NCBI GenBank assembly: GCA_937864235.1
Contig: CALMJI010000018.1
Span: 73,955 to 137,954, forward strand
DNA from: an uncultured bacterium
GTDB taxonomy: Bacteria > Patescibacteriota > Minisyncoccia > SW-4-49-11
Direction: 5' to 3'
Length of the DNA stretch: 64,000 nucleotides
The notes under the pieces are model-generated. The model did not search any database. It saw only the letters and a program-made list of their open reading frames with translations, and was not told where the DNA came from. Below, one piece after another: positions 8,974 through 60,330 of the stretch (position 1 is its first letter; every line of letters starts with the position of its first letter). Both the position numbers and the translations under genes were made by a program.

Positions 8974-9840
8974 CTATCTAATAAAAAATTTTATTAATTG
9001 GTTCACTTCTAATTCTAATGTACAAACTTCTATTTCCTCAGATCTTGCAAAATACCCTTTAATTTCTTCTCTAGCTTTATAGTTATGTGGAGTTAAAGGT
9101 AACATTGTAGGAGATGTGAATTTAATATTAAAAACTTTCTCAATATGATTTTTTAATTTAGGATGTTTCAACATTACCATTATAAACCTTTTTCTACTTT
9201 TTAACAAATACAGATATAACTTCAGTCCCAATAATACAGTAACCAAAGGGTTTTTAGTCTTTTTTGCTCTATAATCTGGATCATTAACCCATCTACCAAC
9301 ATCCACATACTCTGTTAATTCATCCTCTGCTATATCTAAGTTAAAATAATTTAAAGTAGACAACCTAGTTAATTTATTATAAAAAATAATCCTCAATGTC
9401 CCGACAACCTTTTTATCTTTTATAACAACTAAGTTTGTAGAAAACGGATCATAATCATCAACAAAGATATTGTGTTCTTTTGAATCATTAATATATCCAG
9501 TCTCCAAATAAACCTTATGCCGTAATTTGTAAACTTCTTCTAATAGATGTCCATCCGCTTTTTGAACTTTAAATCCTTGTAAATGTGCTATACAATCTAA
9601 AAACCTTACAGCAATTTCAATAAATAAAATTTCAATAGATCGTATAATCTCTCTATAATTTATCAAAAACACAGACCAAGTTAAACCTAGGATTATAGCA
9701 ATATTCGTCCATATTGTAGCATCCCAAATAAAAAACTGTCCCAATATCAGTATGATTATAATAAATATAATCGCATTCAATAAAATATTTCCTACCATAA
9801 TTAAATCAATTCTACCAAATTTTCCCGCACTATACCACAT
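8974..9840 (-). CDS. membrane-anchored GNAT-fold acyltransferase (N-acyl amino acid synthase / autoinducer-synthase-like, PF13444-like)
   Basis: About 90 aa TM N-terminus followed by LEEVYKLRHKVYLETGYIN...FVDDYDPFS...VVIKDKKVVGTLRIIF pattern recalled for N-acyl amino acid synthases. Confidence 0.4.
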   Translation of the reverse strand: MWYSAGKFGRIDLIMVGNILLNAIIFIIIILILGQFFIWDATIWTNIAIILGLTWSVFLINYREIIRSIEILFIEIAVRFLDCIAHLQGFKVQKADGHLLEEVYKLRHKVYLETGYINDSKEHNIFVDDYDPFSTNLVVIKDKKVVGTLRIIFYNKLTRLSTLNYFNLDIAEDELTEYVDVGRWVNDPDYRAKKTKNPLVTVLLGLKLYLYLLKSRKRFIMVMLKHPKLKNHIEKVFNIKFTSPTMLPLTPHNYKAREEIKGYFARSEEIEVCTLELEVNQLIKFFIR

Positions 9841-24327: not shown

Positions 24328-24338
24328 TCTCAACTGAT

Positions 24339-24611
24339 AAATTCCCCTCTCGAGAGATAGCAGGCTTTGCCTGACGGGGTGGAGTATTTCTGTACTTCAC
24401 CTTTCTGTCTCCCTTTGGAGGGAGTACCCGTAATAGACTGAAAGTCTGGGAAAGGGGTCGGGAAAACGGCAGTTTTCCCGTGGAGGAAGGCTGGGAAACC
24501 GTGAGGTTTCACAAGAGCAAATCTCATTTGCGACGGGGGAGGGTGGATAAAACACAAACTAAAACTCTATCCACCTCCGGCACTCTGTGCCACCTCCTCC
24601 AAAGGAGGACA
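24339..24611. repeat. GC-rich modular intergenic repeat (includes GCAAATctcATTTGC hairpin module)
   Basis: Shares modules with 25248-25492, 37190-37300 (inverted) and 60200-60290. Confidence 0.8.
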
Positions 24612-24736
24612 ATTACTATCCAATTTACTGTTATTAGTCTAGTAATGTATATAATCCCTTTTGTCGACGATTACCTCATCTCGCACATAAACTTGACAAA
24701 ATATTAAGTTTAAGTTAATATTGAGATACAAATTGC

Positions 24737-24780
24737 CACTCGGCACGACCCTTATTAGGAATATTTCCCGATAAGGGGTT
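24737..24780 (+). terminator. rho-independent terminator (plus-strand orientation) abutting the 3' end of the mazF-like gene
   Basis: CCCTTAT...ATAAGGGG hairpin followed by TTATTTTTTTAT. Confidence 0.45.
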
Positions 24781-25186
24781 ATTTTTTTATAAATATATCT
24801 AAAAAGGCCTGCTTCACTATATCAAAATCCTGAGGAGACATAATACCTTTTCTATAATGTAATCGTTTAGCATCTAAAACTCTCATCTGAGATATTAATG
24901 CTGAATATTGCTTCCCTTTATATATGAACGGAATATAAAATTGATTATTTGGTTTTATTTTAGTACTGGTTGGAATAGCAAAAAATAGTTTTTGATTAAA
25001 TTTGTGCAACACAATAACTGGTCTATGGAAATTAGAATTTCTTCCACTCATTTCAAAACCCACATTCTCACCTAAATAACTCATCCAAATTTCTCTTTCT
25101 CTAAAAGCTGGCAATTTAGCAGATGATATATCTATTTTCTCTTTTAATCCAATCCACTCCTGAAATCTTTTTATAAACTTTTGCAT
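24779..25186 (-). CDS. MazF/PemK-family endoribonuclease toxin-like protein (copy 1)
   Basis: REIWMSYLGENVGFEMSGRNSNFHRPVIVL...AIPTSTKIK...ISQMRVLDAKRL matches the MazF/Kid/EndoA fold signature. Confidence 0.65.
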   Translation of the reverse strand: MQKFIKRFQEWIGLKEKIDISSAKLPAFREREIWMSYLGENVGFEMSGRNSNFHRPVIVLHKFNQKLFFAIPTSTKIKPNNQFYIPFIYKGKQYSALISQMRVLDAKRLHYRKGIMSPQDFDIVKQAFLDIFIKK

Positions 25187-25250
25187 ATTATATTTTTGAT
25201 TATTATTTACCTAGTATATACCCAAAACTTTATTAAAGCAAAAGTTTCTG
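25187..25250 (-). promoter_or_regulatory. conserved promoter/5' leader module (TTGCTT-17-TATACT ... TATAAT-ATG) shared by three toxin genes
   Basis: About 60 nt nearly identical at 25187-25250, 25983-26045 and 28833-28895, continuing into the first codons ATGCAAAAgTTT. Confidence 0.55.
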
Positions 25251-25492
25251 TCCACACCCACCGCTATGCGGCCCACTCGCCGGCGAGGGACAGTTTTTTG
25301 GGGGGCTCGGCGGTAACTTTGTCCTCCCTTCGGAGGGAGTACCCGTAGGGTGAGGGTGGATGGGCTATTTTTGTCCTCCCTTGGGGGAGGTGGCCGTCAG
25401 GCCGGAGGAGGACAGGAGCAAATCTCATTTGCGACGACGGAGTGAGGACTTGCTCACTGCCCTTTTACGATAAAAGGCATACCCAAGATAGT
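25248..25492. repeat. GC-rich modular intergenic repeat
   Basis: Modules CTCCCT-tcgg-AGGGAG, GCAAATctcATTTGC and CCTTTTAcgaTAAAAGG-catacccaagatag. Confidence 0.8.
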
Positions 25493-25583
25493 AAATCTAA
25501 ACTTGACAATCAATACTATATATTGTAATATAGTTACATATTTGGGATTGTCCCACGTACCTCTCCTCGGAGAGGACTATTTT

Positions 25584-25982
25584 TTATCTATAGAGATTAG
25601 AAAATCCCTTTTTTATATCAAAAAAGTCCTTATTATCTAAATCACCCATATAGGTTGTTAGTCTTCTAAAATCTATTGTCCTTGCTTGAGCTAAATTTAC
25701 AACTTGGGCTCTGCCCCGATGAGTAAATGAAACATACCAAGAGCCCTCTTTTATTTTTGTAGAACAAGGTAAGACCATAAACTGATATCTACTTAGTTTT
25801 TTCAAAATTACAACTGGTCTAGTAAAACTATCGTTTTTACCACTAACCTCAGTACCTATGTTTTCTCCCACACTACACCACCAAATCTGCCCCTCCTTAG
25901 TAAAGGGAGGTTTGCTATTAGATTGATCTAATTTAGGCTTTATAGCTAACCACTCCTGAAATCTTTTTATAAACTTTTGCAT
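25584..25982 (-). CDS. MazF/PemK-family endoribonuclease toxin-like protein (copy 2, paralog)
   Basis: Identical first 11 aa (MQKFIKRFQEW) to copy 1; GQIWWCSVGENIGTEVSGKNDSFTRPVVIL...LPCSTKIK...AQARTIDFRRL. Confidence 0.65.
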   Translation of the reverse strand: MQKFIKRFQEWLAIKPKLDQSNSKPPFTKEGQIWWCSVGENIGTEVSGKNDSFTRPVVILKKLSRYQFMVLPCSTKIKEGSWYVSFTHRGRAQVVNLAQARTIDFRRLTTYMGDLDNKDFFDIKKGFSNLYR

Positions 25983-26045
25983 ATTATATTTTTGATTCTT
26001 ATCTATCTAGTATATCCTAAATATTTTAGTAAAGCAAAAGCTTCT
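25983..26045 (-). promoter_or_regulatory. conserved promoter/5' leader module (copy 2)
   Basis: See 25187-25250. Confidence 0.55.
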
Positions 26046-26192
26046 GTCCTTCGCCCTTTTGTCCCCCTTCGGAGGGGGTGCCTGCAAGGTGGGGGTGGCT
26101 TGTATTCTGACCCTCACTGCCCTTCTGTCCCTCGCTTTTTAATCCGCCTTGGGAGGAAGCGAGGGTGGCACGGAGTGCCGGGTGTGGACTGT
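26044..26192. repeat. GC-rich modular intergenic repeat
   Basis: CCCCCT-tcgg-AGGGGG, aatccgccttgggaggaagcgaggg and GGCAC-gga-GTGCC modules. Confidence 0.8.
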
Positions 26193-26220
26193 ATTTTTCT
26201 TTCCTATCTACAAACCTAAT

Positions 26221-27291
26221 TCACCCAATACTTTGAAAATAATTATTCACAGCAAATTCATATTGCTCTATGAATATCTTTTTGAAATAAGTAATATTAT
26301 TAGTCTCATAAAATAATATACTAGCCTTTTTATACTCAGCCTCAGATACCCCTCTATAAGACAATGGCGTATAATCATAAGCAATCAACATAGCATTAGA
26401 TACAAGTCTAGCAGTCCTTTTATTCCCATCCTCAAAACCCTGTATATATGACAATAAAATTAAGCTGAAAAACGCCTTCTCAAACACATTAGAAGTCCCA
26501 TTCACCAATTTTACCATAGACTTTATAGCCTCCTCAATATGAAACATATTATCTATTGGCCTATAATTAGTCCCCACAATACCAACTGGAGACTTTCTCA
26601 AATTATGAGTAATATTCAAATTTTTAACCAAAATCTGATGAGCTTTTTCAATAAAAGCCTGCTTCAAAACTTTAAAACTCTTTTTATGAGCTATCACAAA
26701 ATCAAAAGCCTCCTTATGATTAAGAATCATTTGAGTCTCCTCCTGACTTTTACCAACCGCACTTTGATGATTGACAATCAAAGACTCCGTATCCAAAAGA
26801 GAATAAGTGTTTCCCTCAATCTGAGAAGATTTCCAAGCAAACTCAATAATTATCCTTTCAAACTCCTTATGCTTAATCACCTCACTATCTATACCCTCCA
26901 GATTACTAACAAAAGTTTTATGCAAACTCTCCAAATAACTCATTTCCTCCTCCGTAAAAACTGAAGTCTCCGCCAAAAGTTTAAAAATATCAAAATTAAA
27001 TTTACTACTAACTATCCTCTCATCCTGAGGAATAGCAAAATACTTCTCCACATCTACAGGCCTCAAAATAGCATAGCTAGGAGACAAATGATACTCCACA
27101 CCGCGACCAGCACCAGTCTGTACCAAATACCCAAGATCACATAATAATTGCAAATCCCTGACAATAGTCACACGAGAAACCTCCTCAGCCAAAAACCCCA
27201 TTATATCCAAAACCGCCCCACTACCATGAGACTCAAAAAACTCCATAACTCTAAGCTGGCGAACATTAAGCACAATATTATCCTGCTTCAT
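26221..27291 (-). CDS. Fic/DOC family protein with N-terminal wHTH, inhibitory-helix-like SxxxEGN motif and degenerate Fic motif
   Basis: QGFEDGNKRTAR in place of canonical HPFx(D/E)GNGRxxR (His to Gln); SSQIEGNTYS upstream resembles the class II inhibitory motif. Confidence 0.65.
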   Translation of the reverse strand: MKQDNIVLNVRQLRVMEFFESHGSGAVLDIMGFLAEEVSRVTIVRDLQLLCDLGYLVQTGAGRGVEYHLSPSYAILRPVDVEKYFAIPQDERIVSSKFNFDIFKLLAETSVFTEEEMSYLESLHKTFVSNLEGIDSEVIKHKEFERIIIEFAWKSSQIEGNTYSLLDTESLIVNHQSAVGKSQEETQMILNHKEAFDFVIAHKKSFKVLKQAFIEKAHQILVKNLNITHNLRKSPVGIVGTNYRPIDNMFHIEEAIKSMVKLVNGTSNVFEKAFFSLILLSYIQGFEDGNKRTARLVSNAMLIAYDYTPLSYRGVSEAEYKKASILFYETNNITYFKKIFIEQYEFAVNNYFQSIG

Positions 27292-27374
27292 ATAAAATAA
27301 TTAAATCATTAATTCAATCTAATTGTATCATAAATGATACAATTAAGCAATTGCAGTGATATAATTAAATATCG

Positions 27375-27680
27375 TCATCTCCACCCTTCGTAGGGGCGAC
27401 CTCTCAGTCGCCTGTATTTTGTACTAAATTCCCCTCTCCTCCCAAGGCGGATTTCATTGAGGGGTGGACAGCTTCGCTGGACGGGGTGGAGTGTATTTTT
27501 GTCCCCCTTTGGAGGGGGTACCTGCAAGGTGGGGGTGGATTGTATTCTGCCCCTCACTGCCCTTTTGTCCCTCGTTTTTTAATCCGCCTTGGGAGGAGGC
27601 GAGGGTGGCACGGAGTGCCGGGTGTGGACTGAGCTTCCCTCCCCTTTTACGATAAAAGGCATACCCAAGATAGTAAATCT
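27375..27680. repeat. GC-rich modular intergenic repeat (largest mosaic copy)
   Basis: Contains nearly all modules seen elsewhere, including a nested insertion of the aatccgccttgggaggag module inside the CCCCTC...GAGGGG hairpin. Confidence 0.85.
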
Positions 27681-27810
27681 AATTTTGACAAAATCAAACA
27701 ATAGAGTTATTATTATTATATATTCGGCATTAGCCGCGACCCTCTTGAAATATAGAGGGGTTATAAATAGGTAGACTAAGAGATCCTGGGCTACCTATTT
27801 TATATTATAA

Positions 27811-27990
27811 CTACTTACCCTCTGATTTAGCTTGTTTTTCCTTCATCATCTGCTCATATTTTCTAAGCATACGATTCTGATCCTCTGAAGATTGTTCAAC
27901 AGCTTTATATACAGCTCTTCTTTGGTTCTCCTCACTAAATAGTTCCATTAGGTATTCTCTATTCCTTTGCTCTTCTTTTACCTTGTCCAT
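27811..27990 (-). CDS. small charged helical protein downstream of the zeta-like gene (possible antitoxin or partner)
   Basis: 59-aa ORF (MDKVKEEQRNREYLMELFSEENQRRAVYKAVEQ...) translated by me and absent from the supplied track; start lies 21 nt after the zeta-like stop; analogous to the small ORF at 37417-37623. Confidence 0.3.
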   Translation of the reverse strand: MDKVKEEQRNREYLMELFSEENQRRAVYKAVEQSSEDQNRMLRKYEQMMKEKQAKSEGK

Positions 27991-28010
27991 ACTTGTTATA
28001 TTAATTATAC

Positions 28011-28832
28011 CTATCTTATATCATCTATTAGATTTTGTAAAGTGTCAGGAGTATATACTTTGATCAACCCATCTGACTTACAACCCTCTAAATAACTCTC
28101 CACATTTTGAATATTATATTCATATTTTTTAATTTTATTATCATCTGACTTTATTACAATATTGACATTCACTCTGTCTTCAAAATCTTCTTTAACTCTA
28201 ATAATATTTTGTTGGGATTGAAAAAACTGATCTATAAACTTATCTTTTAGAATGTTCCTCCCTTCTGTATATTCTCTAGCTACCGTAAATCTCCAAGCTA
28301 CAATAGGATCAAGATAAAGATAATATATATTTATAATTCTATTCTGTTTCAAAGACTTAGTAATTAACTTTTTCATAGTAGAGTAATTACTAAAAGTTCC
28401 ATCATGCAAAAAAGAAATATCATTTTTAAAACAATAATCTCTAATAATATCCAAGCCCTTGTTCGCAGCCTTCTGCACCACCTCAGCATTTCCCTTAATA
28501 TTATTATCCAAATCCGTCACACTATATTGAGGGATAAAAGTTCTAATCTCATCCACATCAATATGAATAAAAGGCATCTTCACATTAGAAGCAATCCCAT
28601 CTGAATTGAAGTCAATATTCAATTTTCCTTCAAAAATAGCCGGAATATATCTCCTCACAAATTCAGTTTTACCAGCTCCGGGGGAGCCAGCCATAAATAA
28701 AGAAATTCCACCCCCTATAGCCAAAGGATTATATCTTTTTACAAAATGATTTATCAGAGAATCTTTATTATCTAACACAAAGTCCAAAGCCTCTTGCTCC
28801 AACTCTAATTTTCTTTGACTAAAATTTTGCAT
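28011..28832 (-). CDS. zeta-toxin-like P-loop kinase (PF06414-like)
   Basis: Walker A FMAGSPGAGKTE, about 270 aa, zeta/PezT-like layout. Confidence 0.65.
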   Translation of the reverse strand: MQNFSQRKLELEQEALDFVLDNKDSLINHFVKRYNPLAIGGGISLFMAGSPGAGKTEFVRRYIPAIFEGKLNIDFNSDGIASNVKMPFIHIDVDEIRTFIPQYSVTDLDNNIKGNAEVVQKAANKGLDIIRDYCFKNDISFLHDGTFSNYSTMKKLITKSLKQNRIINIYYLYLDPIVAWRFTVAREYTEGRNILKDKFIDQFFQSQQNIIRVKEDFEDRVNVNIVIKSDDNKIKKYEYNIQNVESYLEGCKSDGLIKVYTPDTLQNLIDDIR

Positions 28833-28895
28833 ATTATATTTTTGATTCTTATCTATCTAGTATATCCTAAATATTTTAGTAAAGCAAAAACTCCT
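28833..28895 (-). promoter_or_regulatory. conserved promoter/5' leader module (copy 3, on the zeta-like gene)
   Basis: See 25187-25250. Confidence 0.55.
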
Positions 28896-29150
28896 GTCCT
28901 AAAATTCCCCTCTTTTGGCAATCCGCCTACCTACGGCAGGTAAACCTTGGGAGGAGAGGGGTGGACAGCTTCGCTGGACGGGGTGGAGTATTTTATACTT
29001 TTCTCTTGCCCTTCTGTCCCCCTTTGCCTGCCTGCGGTAGGCAGGGAGGGGGTGCCTGCAAGGTGGGGGTGGATGTTCTCTTTCTGTTCCCCAGTGGACT
29101 ACCCCTTCCCTCCCCTTTTACGATAAAAAGAATACCCAAGATAGCCATTG
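28893..29150. repeat. GC-rich modular intergenic repeat
   Basis: Modules shared with 27375-27680. Confidence 0.8.
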
Positions 29151-29153
29151 AAA

Positions 29154-30806
29154 TTATTTTATATCCTTAAAATAATTTATAGTCTTTTGCAAACGATTTA
29201 ATCTTTCTTTTTTTTCATCATCTAATGTATCAAGATCAATATCTTTAATCTGACTCTGTATATCTTTATAAAAATTATCATCCAACTTGTAAATTTGTTT
29301 TAATAAGACTATAGTGTTATTTATTTCTATTTTATCAATTTTATTTTCATATTCTCTATTTTCTTCTGGACTTCCATTATCTACATTACTAATAATCCCC
29401 CAAAATACTTGTTTTTTCAAATACTCCTTCACATTATCTTTTACTACTCTTTTAAACCATATCAATTCCAAAACTCTTATAAATAAAATTGGGTTAATAT
29501 CTGGGACAAAAGCATTAATTAGAATATTTACTTTTCTAATATCTTTAAATTCTAATTTTTTATATGAATTATAAAATACCTTTTCTTTCCAAGTCTCATA
29601 TATATATTCTAACATTATATTAAGCCAATAATATGTGATTTTATTATCTTCTTCTGATTGTAAATTAGATAAATTAATTTGCCACTTTATATCTGACTTA
29701 ATCCAGTGATAGTTTAAGACATCCTTTGCAATAAACTCATCCTTTGAACTCAATATCTCTGTAATTACTCTTTGTCCAAAATATTTGAAAAATTCCAAGT
29801 ATTCCTTATTCTCTCCTTTGAGCTGAACAACTTTGTCTTTATGTCCCTGAATATGTCTATCCAAAGACTCAAAAAAATCTATTGTAGCAGAGACTGGATG
29901 TGGATCTTGTAGAGACTTCTGTAAAATTTTGATCAGAATCTCCTCAGAAATCCTATATATCTCATATAATTCAATACTTTTACTTGCATTATCTTCATTT
30001 TCAGCAGACTCTTGATATTGATACCAAAAACTATAACTGTATTCAAATAGTTTGGTGATAAATTTTTTATTTTGATACTTAAAATTAATCTTGGCAATAT
30101 TATGATAGATAATATTTAATAGTTTATAAATACTTTGATATTCATTTGTTTTAATATATTTATTTACTTGACCTAATATTAGTTCCATAAAGCTTTTCTC
30201 TTCTTCAAAATTCCAGTCTGCAAAACCTTCACCATCACTTTGATATGACTGTTTTTCTATGTTTGCTTTATCATTTGGAATTGCATTAAAGATGTCATTA
30301 ATATTATCTATAAATGATTTATCTTCTTTTTTTATAATATCAAGCCAGTACTTTGTTTTATTAGTGCTATTAATATATTTGCCAGATTCATCTATAGAAT
30401 ATACTAAAAAAACATTAGCCCCAACCCATAAAATCAAACCAATAAGTTTTAAGTAAATATAATCAATATCTACTAATATTACTGAAATTATTGTAATAAC
30501 AATAATACAAATATTTGATCTTACATTAAAGATTTCTGAGAAGATAACTCTTAACTCAATATTGAAACTGGGTTTTTCTTTTTTACTCAATATTGACTCT
30601 ATAATTGAGATAGCGATTGGTATATATAAGCTATAAAGTAGCATTGTCCCTCCTTGTAATAATTGTGATATGTTATTCATTTTATCATTTATCATTAAAG
30701 TAAATATATATCCTCCAATCCACCAAAGAATACAAATAAATATAATTACAATATTAACAATATATATATACTTCTTAGTTGCTCTATCTTGATCTCTATA
30801 GTTCAT
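29154..30806 (-). CDS. hypothetical membrane-anchored protein (last gene of the glycan operon)
   Basis: 550 aa, about 4 N-terminal TM helices then a helical soluble region; extremely AT-rich. Confidence 0.4.
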   Translation of the reverse strand: MNYRDQDRATKKYIYIVNIVIIFICILWWIGGYIFTLMINDKMNNISQLLQGGTMLLYSLYIPIAISIIESILSKKEKPSFNIELRVIFSEIFNVRSNICIIVITIISVILVDIDYIYLKLIGLILWVGANVFLVYSIDESGKYINSTNKTKYWLDIIKKEDKSFIDNINDIFNAIPNDKANIEKQSYQSDGEGFADWNFEEEKSFMELILGQVNKYIKTNEYQSIYKLLNIIYHNIAKINFKYQNKKFITKLFEYSYSFWYQYQESAENEDNASKSIELYEIYRISEEILIKILQKSLQDPHPVSATIDFFESLDRHIQGHKDKVVQLKGENKEYLEFFKYFGQRVITEILSSKDEFIAKDVLNYHWIKSDIKWQINLSNLQSEEDNKITYYWLNIMLEYIYETWKEKVFYNSYKKLEFKDIRKVNILINAFVPDINPILFIRVLELIWFKRVVKDNVKEYLKKQVFWGIISNVDNGSPEENREYENKIDKIEINNTIVLLKQIYKLDDNFYKDIQSQIKDIDLDTLDDEKKERLNRLQKTINYFKDIK

Positions 30807-36816: not shown

Positions 36817-36917
36817 ATATTTTTAGGGTTATTGTTTTATTATAGCATGGGTTGGGGTGTGTGTGAATTATAAATGGTGAATTATGAGTTTGTAGGGGCT
36901 AAAATGCAAAAGCAAAA

Positions 36918-37390
36918 CTCAATCCACCCCGTCCAGCGTAGCTGTCCACCCCTCGAGAGGGGAATTAGCTCAGTCCTACTCCGGCCTATCGGCCACCTCC
37001 CCCGAGGGAGGACAAGAGGGCAAGTTGCAAAGTACATCCACCCTCCCCCTTCGGGGACTCCCTCCTAAGGGAGACAGAAGCTCTGAAGGCCAGAAATCCA
37101 ATATTCAAAATACACTCCACCCCGTCCAGCATAGCTGTCCACCCCTCAAGAGGGGAATTTAGCTCAGGCTGCAAAATACGGTCCTCCTCCGCCGTCGCAA
37201 ATGGGATTTGCTCCTGTGAAACCTCTCGGTTTCCCAACCTTCCTCAACGGGAAAACTTCTGTTTTCCCAACCCCTTTCCCAGACTTTCAGTCTACTTCGT
37301 GCCACCTCCCCCAAGGGAGGACAAGAGGGCAAGTTGCAAAGTATCAAATACAGGCGACTGAGAGGTCGCCCCTACGAGATGGGAGGGTAG
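36918..37390. repeat. GC-rich modular intergenic repeat (about 470 bp, two tandem composite copies)
   Basis: Module set similar to 38420-38645; contains an inverted copy of the GCAAAT..ATTTGC / gtttcccaaccttcctc module seen at 24430-24540. Confidence 0.8.
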
Positions 37391-37416
37391 AAATTTTATA
37401 ATTAAAGCTTATTATA

Positions 37417-37623
37417 TTAAATAGTTTTTTTCTTAATTTTTGCCCATTTTTTCATATTGTCTTGTTGTTCTTTATTTGCAAATTCAGATACTTTTTGTAA
37501 CCAATAAAGTCGCTCTTCTAGCGGAGCTTTATTCATTATATAATCAATAGTTGGTCGTTTTTCTCGACTCTTAAAATTCAGTGATTTAGTTATATTCTTA
37601 TAAATATCTAATACTTTTTTCAT
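37417..37623 (-). CDS. small helical protein overlapping (4 nt) the 3' end of the zeta-like gene
   Basis: 68 aa; translationally coupled; weak resemblance to the 59-aa ORF at 27811-27990. Confidence 0.35.
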   Translation of the reverse strand: MKKVLDIYKNITKSLNFKSREKRPTIDYIMNKAPLEERLYWLQKVSEFANKEQQDNMKKWAKIKKKTI

Positions 37624-38324
37624 AATAATTGTTCTAATTCTTCTTTATTATATACTTTTTGTAATGCTTCATCAAGTTGTTTTATATTTGTAATTGGAAT
37701 AAGGTTAAGATTTTCAGTGGATTTTATATCTACTCGATTGAATAGTAATATTTCTACTTCTTCATTAGAAAAAGTTTCTCTTATACTTCTTACTGTTTGA
37801 TATGCTCCAATATATTTTTGGATAAAAGTTTCTTTGAGAATACGGCGACCTTCTTCTTTTTCTCTATTTTGAGTATATTGCCAAGCATATTCGGGTTGCA
37901 GGTAAATATAAATAACAGTGACTTTTCTTTGCCTTCTGAGTGATCTTATGATATTTTCTTTAGCTCTATGTTTATCTGAGAATGTGCCATCTAGGATAAA
38001 GGAGATATTTTGGTCTAAAAGCCTATCATGAATATAACTTACAAGTTTACTCATAGCTTTTTGGAAGAGATGAGAGTTATTACCTTCATATCCTGGCAAT
38101 ATAGATCGGTATAAATCTCCATCCAGATGTAAAATATTGCCATCTAATAATTCCACTACTCCCCTAGCCCATTCGGTCTTACCTGCACCGGGAGAACCTG
38201 CCATAAAAATTGAAAGTGGCACATCTACTGAAGTATAATCTAGGAGTAAATCTTTAGTGATATTTTGTTTGTGTTTGCGGATATAGTTAATAGCTTCTTG
38301 ACTAATATCTTTTTCTTTAGCCAT
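37620..38324 (-). CDS. zeta-toxin-like P-loop kinase (second paralog)
   Basis: Walker A FMAGSPGAGKTE; 234 aa. Confidence 0.65.
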   Translation of the reverse strand: MAKEKDISQEAINYIRKHKQNITKDLLLDYTSVDVPLSIFMAGSPGAGKTEWARGVVELLDGNILHLDGDLYRSILPGYEGNNSHLFQKAMSKLVSYIHDRLLDQNISFILDGTFSDKHRAKENIIRSLRRQRKVTVIYIYLQPEYAWQYTQNREKEEGRRILKETFIQKYIGAYQTVRSIRETFSNEEVEILLFNRVDIKSTENLNLIPITNIKQLDEALQKVYNKEELEQLL

Positions 38325-38419: not shown

Positions 38420-38645
38420 AAAACTCAATCCACCCCGTCAGTCAAACCTACCACCCCTCGAGAGGGGAATTTAGCTCAAGTCCTCCTCCGTCACCTACGG
38501 TGACACCTCCCCCAAGGGAGGACAGAAAATAGAAGTCCAGAAACACATCCACCCTCCCCCTTCGGGGACTCCCTACAAAGGGAGACAAAAGCTCAGTCCA
38601 CACCCGTCGACTTCCTCGCTACCCTCGCCAGCGAGGGACAGAAAA
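38420..38645. repeat. GC-rich modular intergenic repeat
   Basis: Shares more than 100 nt with 36918-37140. Confidence 0.8.
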
Positions 38646-38659
38646 CATTCACAAATTAA

Positions 38660-48272: not shown

Positions 48273-48369
48273 ATCTGTATTCTCTTATTGATATATTATA
48301 TTTTGTATTTTTATTATAGCATAGAAAGAAAAATTTTTGAATGGGTTGTATGGTGTTTTTAAATTTCCC

Positions 48370-48750
48370 TGTCCTCCTCCGTCACTTTACGGTGCCACCT
48401 CCCCCAAGGGAGGACAGTAATTTTGTCCCTCGCCGGCGAGGGTGGCACGGAGCGCCGGGTGTGGACTTGTCTTTGATAGGTATTTTTTATCCACCCTCCC
48501 ACTACGGGTACGCCCTCCCTGCCTACCGCAGGCAGGCAAAAGGAGACAAAAAGCAGAGTTCAGGCGACTGAAAGGTCGCCCCTACGAGGACAGAATATAC
48601 TATTTAACTCTATCCACCTCCGGCCTAAAGGCAACCTCCTCCTAAGGAGGACACGATCTCCAATGCAGGACAATCCACCCCGTCAATAAAAGATTTCCAC
48701 CCCTCAATGAAATCCGCCTTGGGCGGAGAGGGGAATTTTAATATAGCCCC
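48370..48750. repeat. GC-rich modular intergenic repeat
   Basis: Modules shared with 19280-19480 and 10872-10971 (ctgcctaccgcaggcaggc, GGCAC-gga-GCGCC). Confidence 0.8.
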
Positions 48751-48755
48751 CACCT

Positions 48756-49424
48756 CTACACTTTCAAATAGTCTAGGTGGGCGGTATCATTGTATGTGAT
48801 TAGTTTCCAACCGGTATATGGATATTCTGGATGATAATGTAGCACTACTATTCCTGTATTTTCTAGCCAATATTGTTCTTGTAATCTCTTATAAATATCT
48901 GGAGTTAATGCATCACCTAAAATCACTTTTATAATTAAAGCATTTAAGAAAAATTGATGCGTGACTACTCCTAAAACTGGCTCTGGCTTTAATTTTAAGA
49001 ATTCTATGGCTTGCTCTGCTCTTGCTAACATACTATCATAACTATCTCCGTCTTCAATCTGGGTATTAGGCTCAAAAAGACTATTGACCCAATTCTTTTC
49101 TATTTCTAATATTCTTGGTTCTTGTCTAATTTGTCCTATGATTGAACTGGGCTTTTGTTTTTCTATAAATAAATCTGAATATTCTATATCTAAATTTGTG
49201 ATTGAACTTATTATTTTAGATGTTTCTTTCGCTCTAGTCAGGGTGCTAGATATGAGATATGATAATTGTAAATACTTGATTCTCTCAGCTAATTTAATAG
49301 CCTGTGATTTACCTACTTCTGTTAAATACTGCTCTCTTACATGAATATTTTTATTTTTGTTAATATTCTCATCACTCTGAGCATGACGAAAAAAATATAT
49401 TGTTTTTTGTGGTTTTGTATACAT
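48756..49424 (-). CDS. histidine phosphatase family protein (second paralog)
   Basis: RHAQSDEN motif; C-terminus NDTAHL shared with the 23308-23949 product. Confidence 0.7.
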   Translation of the reverse strand: MYTKPQKTIYFFRHAQSDENINKNKNIHVREQYLTEVGKSQAIKLAERIKYLQLSYLISSTLTRAKETSKIISSITNLDIEYSDLFIEKQKPSSIIGQIRQEPRILEIEKNWVNSLFEPNTQIEDGDSYDSMLARAEQAIEFLKLKPEPVLGVVTHQFFLNALIIKVILGDALTPDIYKRLQEQYWLENTGIVVLHYHPEYPYTGWKLITYNDTAHLDYLKV

Positions 49425-59651: not shown

Positions 59652-59738
59652 AGACTATATAGACACCCCATTCCCCAACATATATTGACTAAATTGATTT
59701 TATTATGTAAAATAAACAAGTACCTTAGAAAACTTAAT

Positions 59739-60141
59739 TCCGCGATAGCTCAGCGGTAGAGCAGTCGGCTGTGAATGCCTTCTTGAGTCGTCGTAAAATA
59801 ATTATATTTTTATGTCTGACAAAAGAAAATATTCTGATCGTGCTGAATATCTTTTTTAGAAATTCACTCCGATCTAGTCGCAGCCTCTTCTGGTAACAGA
59901 AGTTGAAACACGAGGTGAATTGCTGGAAGCCTAAGGTAGTAATACTAAGGCAATCAGCAGCCAAGTCTAGCAAAACTAGAAAGGTTCAGAGACTATCCCA
60001 AAAGGGAGTACATTGTAGCAATACAGTGGAAGCGCCTCGCTCCATCAAAACGATGGATGATGATATAGTCCACGCCTATTAGAAATATTAGGACAAGGTG
60101 TAACCGATTGGTCGTAGGTTCGAATCCTACTCGCGGAGCCA
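59739..60141 (+). tRNA. tRNA-Asn (anticodon GUU) interrupted by an intron in the anticodon loop (exons 59739-59772 and 60101-60141, CCA encoded)
   Basis: Exons fold as a cloverleaf: acceptor TCCGCGA/TCGCGGA (U1-A72, discriminator G73 as in E. coli tRNA-Asn), D-arm GCTC-AGCGGTA-GAGC, anticodon stem GTCGG/CCGAT, spliced loop CTGT|TAA giving anticodon GTT, variable loop TGGTC, T-arm GTAGG-TTCGAAT-CCTAC. Confidence 0.7.
59773..60100 (+). ncRNA. group I (IC3-like) self-splicing intron inside tRNA-Asn
   Basis: 5' exon ends in U and the intron ends in G; IGS GCAGCC (59879-59884) complements exon GGCUGU; P2 hairpin TCTTCTGgtaaCAGAAG; core blocks GTGAATTGCTGGAAGCCTAAGG and GGCAATCAGCAGCCAAGTC resemble Azoarcus/Tetrahymena P3-P4 and J6/7; CAGAGACTA (P7 5') paired with TAGTC (60066-60070); P8 TCCCaaaaGGGA; P9 hairpin before omega-G. 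Confidence 0.6.
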
Positions 60142-60194: not shown

Positions 60195-60319
60195 GAGTAG
60201 GATGAGAACCTGGGGAAGGGGTCGGGAAACGAGAGTTTCCAGTGGCGGAGGTATTGGAACCGAGGGGTTCCAAGGAGTGAATCCCATTCACGACTGGTTT
60301 GCAATCCTACTCGCGGAGC
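60195..60319. repeat. GC-rich repeat module followed by a partial direct copy of the tRNA-Asn 3' end (60295-60319)
   Basis: GGTTTGCAATCCTACTCGCGGAGCA versus tRNA GGTTCGAATCCTACTCGCGGAGCCA. Confidence 0.7.
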
Positions 60320-60330
60320 AAAATCCCTTT

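Follow-up and report, generated by a model that had tools for sequence, protein, structure and literature searches.

A 5' module common to three toxin genes is probably the leading part of recombining MazF–small RNA cassettes

Here, we analyse a 64,000-nucleotide (nt) stretch of DNA from an uncultured bacterium (contig CALMJI010000018.1, positions 73,955 to 137,954; hereafter the window), which is part of a Paceibacterota chromosome (Patescibacteria, or candidate phyla radiation, CPR). The window carries an island of minus-strand toxin-like genes, among them two solo members of the PemK/MazF family, MazF1 and MazF2, and a gene for a Zeta-toxin family kinase that is followed by a short open reading frame (ORF) of 59 codons (Table 1). 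These three toxin genes are preceded by nearly the same sequence, the 5' module, and their cassettes end in a convergent gene for a predicted small RNA (sRNA).

The minus-strand copies of the module before MazF2 (25975-26039) and before the zeta gene (28825-28889) are identical at 65 of 65 nt, from TTTTGCTTT to ATGCAAAA, with a chance expectation of zero. In BLAST alignments, the tract common to MazF1 and MazF2 runs from about −67 (GGACAG..) to +33 relative to the ORF start (89.7% identity over 97 nt), and the tract common to the zeta gene and MazF2 reaches about +21 (93.3% identity over 89 nt). The upstream boundary, at about −67, coincides with a GGACAGRAG motif, and identity within the module is far above that of the adjoining coding or repeat sequence. 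A TTGCTT-17-TATACT promoter-like arrangement is present by direct reading; it is missing from the list of our promoter scan because TTGCTT matches TTGACA at only three of six positions. The leader is short (~25 nt) and A-rich and lacks a Shine-Dalgarno sequence. Downstream of it, MazF1 and MazF2 both start MQKFIKRFQEW, with 33 of the first 33 coding nt identical, and the window zeta protein starts MQNF. The initial annotation had reported a near-identical region of ~60 nt with this promoter arrangement and the shared first residues (11 amino acids in the MazF pair), and all of this is borne out, as are its MazF-like and zeta-like gene calls, by PemK_toxin and Zeta_toxin Pfam matches. It had also asked whether the similarity might reflect a generic promoter or a recent tandem duplication of one gene. 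The former is at odds with three copies in the window and only two further true copies in a metagenome-wide scan; the latter is at odds with MazF proteins that are 41% identical overall and with a zeta protein unrelated to them.

The rarity of the module bears directly on the generic-promoter question. The 22-mer ATCAAAAATATAATATGCAAAA occurs at exactly three sites in the 64-kb window (25179-25200, 25975-25996 and 28825-28846), where none would be expected. The metagenome-wide scan used a loose 29-nt pattern and gave 12 matches, of which the true copies lie before a zeta gene (L015) and before MazF2 (L022), while the other 10 are unrelated AT-rich promoters (labels of this form denote comparison loci or contigs, as numbered in our analysis). 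An exact degenerate 33-mer of the module had no match in species-representative genomes because strain variants of the module exist. Promoters of the AT-rich TTGCTT..TATACT type are thus common, as a generic strong promoter of this genome would be, and a metagenome assembly might join repeats wrongly; nevertheless, with three copies in 64 kb, with the extended sequence confined in other samples to MazF2 or zeta, and with the identical arrangement in independent assemblies from the European Nucleotide Archive (ENA; NODE_6, L001) and the Joint Genome Institute (JGI; L003), we consider either explanation very improbable within the collections searched. In particular, because the arrangement recurs in independent assemblies, it is not an assembly artefact.

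Each copy of the module abuts a GC-rich intergenic block of 55-58% GC in a genome of ~33% GC. The block unit consists of TCCAC(A/C)CC, a short hairpin, ACC, a CCCTC..GAGGG hairpin and GACAAAAG; units are nested and occur in both orientations, in the manner of BOX or REP elements, are also found in related genomes (L029), and have no match in Rfam. The blocks are multi-hairpin mosaics and not single imperfect palindromes. Smaller blocks lie near 19.4, 46.0, 47.7 and 56.4 kb. The initial annotation had correctly placed a GC repeat upstream of each copy and had suggested that the module travels with it. Such a module would be part of a mobile, promoter-carrying repeat, a unit resembling a miniature inverted-repeat transposable element together with the GC-rich repeat, that inserts upstream of genes, and both the start of the tract at the unit end GGACAGRAG and the nested, dispersed, selfish-repeat-like character of the blocks would fit this idea. 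However, each of the three modules has a different block before it, with only the short unit end GGACAGRAG in common, and these blocks differ among strains as well; many blocks, in both orientations, have no module; the module is found only before MazF-type starts or zeta; and the tract reaches into the initial codons of the ORF, sequence that would not come with an element inserted upstream. We therefore regard insertion of a mobile repeat as improbable, and the suggestion that module and repeat move together is not supported. As to an integron reading of the blocks, which would call for attC sites and a nearby integrase, no recombinase was seen among the genes annotated around the island, where no attC model was run.

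Comparison of strains shows exchange of the module. The exact MazF2 protein is present on 21 contigs, and a 99%-identical copy is found in 'Candidatus Paceibacterota bacterium P_PACE2'. Contigs with identical MazF2 differ in the neighbouring genes (Table 1), which marks the locus as a hypervariable toxin/defence island. In L015, zeta is preceded by the same module as in the window, whereas the orthologous zeta genes in L005, L027 and L107 have another promoter (..TATGGTATAATACAAATATATTAATTACAACAAA-ATG) with ATGCAAAAGTTTAG kept, and this is the promoter that lies before a different MazF paralogue in L028. The module of L007 is a patchwork in which MazF2-type sequence is followed by MazF1-type diagnostic bases (GTTTTGGGT) and then again by MazF2-type sequence. 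Copies within a genome are identical (MazF2 and zeta in the window, and both copies in L006), while orthologous copies of different strains differ. Because copies are more alike within a genome than between strains, we conclude that they undergo concerted evolution by gene conversion. The proposal in the initial annotation that a 5' module is swapped among toxin cassettes is thus supported, by the strain-dependent zeta promoter and by the L007 patchwork.

The same data bear on the other proposal of that annotation, a common operator. Under this explanation, the three toxin genes form a regulon, and the ~60 nt are kept by selection for a common repressor, activator or sRNA, which would account for identity in the module far above that of its surroundings; in addition, the promoter spacer of two copies carries a short, imperfect inverted repeat, CTAAA-ATA-TTTAG. 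Yet this repeat is lost from the MazF1 copy, no conserved palindrome was found across the module copies, the island shows no apparent regulator gene, and MazF homologues of other lineages do not share the 5' region. Moreover, the sister-strain zeta gene uses another promoter, and the extension of identity into coding sequence, like the patchwork exchange, is typical of conversion. A regulon is therefore unlikely: that the three toxins are transcribed from similar promoters is a side effect of their history and does not speak for an operator dedicated to them.

The 3' half of the cassettes, an antisense sRNA gene that does not figure in the initial annotation, is the more informative feature. 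Convergent to each of the three module-bearing units lies an sRNA gene (Table 1); its sigma-70 promoter is close to consensus, and two hairpins follow, with a U-run that extends up to the stop codon. The three antisense promoters are the best three sigma-70-like sites of the 6.7-kb region, the predicted RNA folds have z-scores of −3.2 to −3.7, and a covariance model of the RNA, R1, matches the window only at these three RNAs. In the MazF2 cassette, the U-run behind the two hairpins overlaps the stop codon of MazF2; in the zeta cassette, an additional hairpin and U-run extend to ~27805. The sRNA is single copy, downstream of the toxin gene and on the opposite strand, and neither a repeat search nor the sequence itself revealed repeats of the sRNA unit upstream of the toxin genes. 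The MazF-associated sRNA matches no Rfam 15 family, pemK and DUF3800-I..XI included, whether the cut-off is the gathering score or E up to 10; the search covered L002, 20 loci with the motif, a 151-nt stretch of L087 and the island of the window. An sRNA that targets the shared 5' module was considered as a candidate regulator and rejected: duplex energies between the cassette sRNAs and the module are no better than those of shuffled controls, a further point against the regulon.

The same 3' arrangement stands behind MazF homologues of 45-60% identity in unrelated contexts. Hairpin B could not be aligned by MAFFT because its stem length varies; we turned instead to a two-hairpin parser, run against shuffled controls, and to a model-derived alignment. 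The parser scored at least 24 for 69 of 84 downstream regions but for only 15 of 252 shuffles. An antisense promoter with a match of at least 10/12 is present at 53 of 66 loci, and at 52 of these 66 the distance from the end of the −10 element to hairpin A is exactly 11 nt. In hairpin A (YGGS/SCCR), 208 of 208 cells are paired, with alternative pairs at individual positions (UA:35 vs CG:17; GC:38 vs CG:14). R1 gave 79 matches across 82 MazF loci (396 kb); the hit-table coordinates, by reading and not by computation, place these opposite in strand to MazF and at its 3' end. The sRNA is strictly associated with this MazF clade. In the model-derived alignment, both helices are 95% paired, compensatory changes occur in eight of eight pairs, and none of 500 shuffles reaches the observed score. 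The 29 U-G wobbles are compatible with the antisense strand only. Hairpin A and the CG linker are near-invariant in primary sequence across Patescibacteria.

The toxin gene at the centre of this arrangement belongs to a clade of which a scan of a genome collection found 452 loci in species-representative genomes, nearly all of them Patescibacteria; 80 of the 452 were retrieved for analysis. MazF1 and MazF2 score 32.3 and 39.4 bits against PF02452 (PemK_toxin; cut-off 23.1), and the clade profile matches the MazF/EndoA structures 4MDX (Bacillus subtilis MazF), 1NE8 and 4MZM with E of about 1e-5. Among 21 aligned clade members, R55 and P72 are invariant, P56 is conserved in at least 90%, and the residue two positions past P72 is Ser or Thr in most, though not all. 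R55 aligns to the RPV motif of B. subtilis MazF, and we take the conserved Arg of the RP pair and the Ser/Thr to have the catalytic roles that they have in MazF. The clade also has an additional N-terminal segment of ~25 residues (KRFxEW). Across 71 MazF loci, no conserved upstream protein antitoxin was found: in 36, no ORF of 40 codons or more on the same strand ends within 60 nt upstream, 17 have an unrelated large ORF in this position, and the remaining 18-19 have small, mechanically called ORFs without mutual similarity. Upstream of the window cassettes lies only the GC repeat. Hundreds of genomes nonetheless carry a type II toxin annotation for this clade, which lacks an antitoxin gene. 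In other CPR genomes (L023 and L024), the MazF and sRNA unit lies in or beside restriction-modification clusters (ApaLI-type and Eco57I/MmeI-type), a neighbourhood that hints at a role in defence islands.

The zeta cassette differs from the MazF cassettes in what lies between the module and the sRNA gene. In every locus examined, an ORF of 51-62 codons lies directly 3' of the zeta homologue, as the 59-codon ORF does in the window; the window zeta gene has no upstream partner gene, and the gene order of epsilon-zeta is reversed. The candidate partner (..LFSEENQRRAV.K..) is also seen in L107 (3843-4013), L108 (3837-3992) and L110 (3835-4023) and has no Pfam match. Outside this lineage, zeta proteins start ME(L/F), and MQKF or MQNF starts occur only in the lineage with MazF-type promoters; from this pattern of starts, we place the junction inside the first codons. 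At the distant zeta loci L108 and L110, the genes have their own promoters and the sRNA covariance model gave no match. In this lineage, by contrast, the zeta pair is flanked by a MazF-type promoter on one side and a MazF-type sRNA gene on the other, and in two strain groups it stands between two different versions of the MazF-type promoter.

We suggest that the module is most likely the 5' part of recombining MazF-sRNA cassettes, in one slot of which a zeta pair has come to lie. In this model, the repeat would be the start of a cassette type specific to one lineage and would take in its promoter, its short leader, which lacks a Shine-Dalgarno sequence, and its initial codons. The cassette would read, in order, 5' module, solo gene for a MazF-like endoribonuclease, convergent gene for an sRNA of ~45-50 nt, boundary hairpin and GC-rich mosaic repeat, with the sRNA terminator abutting the MazF stop codon. 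MazF1 and MazF2 would be old paralogues that owe their near-identical 5' ends to gene conversion. The MazF ORF of the third cassette would have given way, through recombination, to a self-contained pair of zeta and small ORF, with one junction within ~8-21 nt of the ORF start and the other at the GGACAGRAG end of the repeat that lies upstream. More generally, homologous or microhomology-mediated recombination, which we infer as the mechanism, would homogenise the 5' ends through the end of the upstream repeat unit and the downstream first codons. Pre-existing microhomology possibly helped to place the zeta junction in the first codons. The sRNA would probably act as the antitoxin of an otherwise partner-less MazF.

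Several points weigh against this model. Selection on a shared regulatory site could itself be the cause of the module identity. A zeta homologue with 67% identity already starts MKEF, and the shared first codons may in part reflect a pre-existing chance resemblance rather than captured sequence. The toxicity of the MazF clade and its neutralisation by RNA are putative, and the promoters, the transcription start sites and the sRNA are predictions from sequence. The covariation alignments were structure-selected or structure-fitted, a concern that is mitigated by a tabulation of hairpin A without a pairing requirement (TA 46, CG 21, TG 4, CA 1). The many copies of the sRNA without an adjacent MazF gene in L107 and L005 mean that it is not exclusive to MazF within this lineage, and the sRNA copy next to zeta may be no relic but have a function in that cassette.

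These orphan copies form arrays of MazF-type sRNAs in L107 (340-590, 866-907, 2491-2532 and 4035-4355), and further copies lie in the same island of related strains (L005, 1647-1757; L027, 186-227 and 1777-1887). Orphan arrays are the expected remains of decaying cassettes that lose the toxin first.

The layout of the MazF cassettes shares traits with several known toxin-antitoxin systems. In the type I loci txpA/RatA and bsrG/SR4 of B. subtilis, antisense RNAs are convergent to the toxin gene and overlap its 3' end. As in these loci, the predicted small RNA described here would be made from a strong promoter of its own and would reach or overlap the 3' end of the toxin mRNA, and no protein antitoxin accompanies it. 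The B. subtilis toxins, however, are small membrane peptides with RNAs of ~100-220 nt and little conserved sequence, whereas the cassettes encode a MazF-family RNase of ~130 residues and an RNA of ~45-50 nt with a motif conserved across the phylum; the hydrophobic peptide toxin that is typical of, though not universal in, type I systems is replaced here by a soluble RNase-family protein of 132-135 residues. In type III systems (ToxIN, CptIN and TenpIN), an endoribonuclease of the Kid/MazF fold is neutralised by a structured RNA, and the antitoxin is encoded upstream, on the same strand, as tandem repeats that are processed by the toxin. Here, in contrast, the RNA is single, non-repeated and convergent, and the toxin matches PemK/MazF and not ToxN; without a repeat array and with the RNA on the opposite strand, the MazF cassettes are not type III systems of the ToxIN kind. 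With mazEF and pemIK (type II), they share a toxin of PF02452 with the invariant Arg of the RP pair, but they have neither an upstream gene of the MazE/PemI type nor a conserved neighbouring small protein and, because they lack a protein antitoxin, are not type II. The zeta cassette, for its part, resembles epsilon/zeta (PezAT) in its Zeta_toxin kinase domain with a P-loop and differs in having the small partner ORF downstream and the pair embedded in MazF-type flanks.

As to how the RNA might act, the conserved sequence of hairpin A and the CG linker suggests a type III-like action in which the RNA binds the toxin protein, and the convergent overlap would allow a type I-like action, in which the RNA could pair as an antisense with the 3' end of mazF.

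The layout of MazF gene and sRNA may also resemble that of cjrA/cjpT on the Campylobacter jejuni plasmid pVir, which is reported to be a validated type I system with cjrA as the RNA antitoxin (Shen et al. 2016, as cited in PMC7826846 and PMC10470494). On pVir (L112, 30630-31034), we find a solo homologue of the MazF clade (WP_011117588.1), which may be CjpT, and, by reading and folding, a convergent promoter-like site and hairpins downstream. Similar solo homologues, with a convergent promoter-like site and two to three hairpins shortly past the stop codon, are present on Helicobacter and Nitratiruptor plasmids and in Campylobacter CJIE4 prophages (L113-L115); at the Nitratiruptor locus, an ORF of 62 codons for a protein like those of the ribbon-helix-helix family also lies 3'. 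R1 has no match at the Campylobacter and Nitratiruptor homologue loci, and the Campylobacter RNAs are therefore not recognisably homologous. The Rfam pemK and DUF3800 motifs (Weinberg et al. 2017, PMC5737381) are likewise structured RNAs found through their association with toxin-like genes, and several of them reportedly carry terminators; none of them matches the RNAs described here.

If the model holds, the occurrence of unrelated toxins behind a common promoter would be explained by recombination within a cassette scaffold. The island would then illustrate, at the level of populations, both concerted evolution and the exchange of one ORF for another in a CPR toxin/defence island. A conserved RNA partner would be assigned to a MazF clade that now carries a type II annotation and, should this RNA be the antitoxin, the MazF fold would be linked to RNA-based neutralisation outside ToxIN-type systems. 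Cassettes of this kind would also offer a compact RNA-protein pair from organisms that are hard to study, and the covariance model could improve annotation. More tentatively, and with doubt, we envisage that partner-less MazF-like RNases throughout Patescibacteria are neutralised by a single convergent sRNA of ~45 nt that binds the toxin and would represent a non-repetitive, type III-like class of RNA antitoxin, that the scaffold serves in some lineages as an exchangeable toxin slot, that orphan sRNAs are anti-addiction relics, and that the RNAs beside DUF3800 genes act likewise.

Table 1. Features of the toxin island and of other parts of the window, with the gene content of the island in related contigs.
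Feature	Position	Strand	Remarks
5' module, copy A (MazF1)	25154..25253	-	~90% identical to copy B, -67 to +33
5' module, copy B (MazF2)	25950..26049	-	GGACAGAAG, TTGCTT-17-TATACT, ~25-nt leader, first 33 ORF nt
5' module, copy C (zeta)	28812..28899	-	equal to copy B over 65 nt; similarity fades at ~+21 of ORF
MazF1, 135-aa solo PemK/MazF-family protein	24779..25186	-	Pfam PF02452, E 1.2e-7; family alignment
MazF2, 132-aa solo PemK/MazF-family protein	25584..25982	-	Pfam PF02452, E 7.6e-10
Zeta-toxin family kinase, 273 aa	28011..28832	-	Pfam PF06414 (Zeta_toxin), E 1.5e-27, 96.8 bits; P-loop
59-aa ORF downstream of zeta	27811..27990	-	candidate protein partner
Predicted sRNA gene, MazF1 cassette	24693..24786	+	TTGACA-17-TAATAT 24693-24721; RNA ~24728-24786; 24.3 bits, E 2e-5
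Predicted sRNA gene, MazF2 cassette	25503..25583	+	TTGACA-17-TAATAT 25503-25531; RNA ~25537-25583; 41.9 bits, E 9e-12
Predicted sRNA gene, 3' end of zeta/59-aa cassette	27685..27768	+	TTGACA-17-TATTAT 27685-27713; RNA ~27719-27768; 45.9 bits, E 3e-13
Conserved 56-nt boundary element	25454..25509, 27636-27691, partial 29107-29162		between sRNA promoter and GC block
GC-rich mosaic repeat blocks in island	24330-24620, 25228-25465, 26026-26212, 27384-27671, 28902-29125		separate cassettes
GC-rich blocks outside island	36895-37388, 38424-38658, 48358-48757		without module
HTH-Fic cassette	26221..27291	-	between module-bearing cassettes; own promoter; no 5' module, no sRNA
Second, shorter zeta-toxin gene	37620-38324	-	PF06414, E 5e-36
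tRNA gene with group I intron	59738-60140	+	intron in anticodon loop, Rfam 59794-60092, 86.5 bits
Island in window, L001, L003			zeta, 59-aa ORF, Fic, MazF2, MazF1
Island in L002, L004			NYN, 59-aa ORF (zeta cut to last 30 nt), DUF3800, MazF2
Island in L005, L027			zeta, 56-aa ORF, MazF2, YbjQ
Island in L006			two tandem MazF cassettes
Island in L015			zeta (frameshifted), 59-aa ORF, NYN

A second sRNA-like family with the same type of promoter occurs in L002 (8045-8115, plus strand; 9600-9690, minus strand), in L047 (~4063, minus strand) and in L107 (~482 and 4177, plus strand; 4446, minus strand), with a remnant in L005. Its members begin with ACAAGUAA, which is followed by a variable outer stem with compensatory changes, a conserved core (GUGAGGCUCCGNANGGUUCCUCUA) and a terminator. 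In sister strains, they are convergent to a DUF3800 gene, beside an NYN gene, and they have no match among the Rfam DUF3800 motifs. This arrangement suggests that DUF3800 genes follow the same logic of toxin plus RNA.

The boundary element contains a hairpin, CCTTTTA-TCG-TAAAAGG; a diverged copy lies near 24640-24690, and the element is also found behind an ORF of 550 codons that has no sRNA. The helix-turn-helix (HTH)-Fic protein has a Fic motif that reads QGFEDGNKRTAR, with Gln in place of the catalytic His. Its promoter region (~27300-27350), with the arrangement TTGCTT-17-TACAAT, embeds a perfect palindrome, TTGTATCAT-TT-ATGATACAA, that is likely an autoregulatory operator. The second zeta gene of the window is followed by a small ORF (~37400-37620, minus strand) and flanked on both sides by GC-rich blocks, and it has neither a 5' module nor an sRNA.

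Elsewhere, the window encodes V/A-ATPase, histidyl-tRNA synthetase (HisRS) and glycosyltransferase genes. The intron-bearing tRNA gene was not called by ARAGORN; it has an acceptor stem TCCGCGA..TCGCGGAGCCA and once spliced would apparently yield tRNA-Thr(UGU). A partial duplicate of its 3' end is found at ~60296-60320, behind a GC-rich block.

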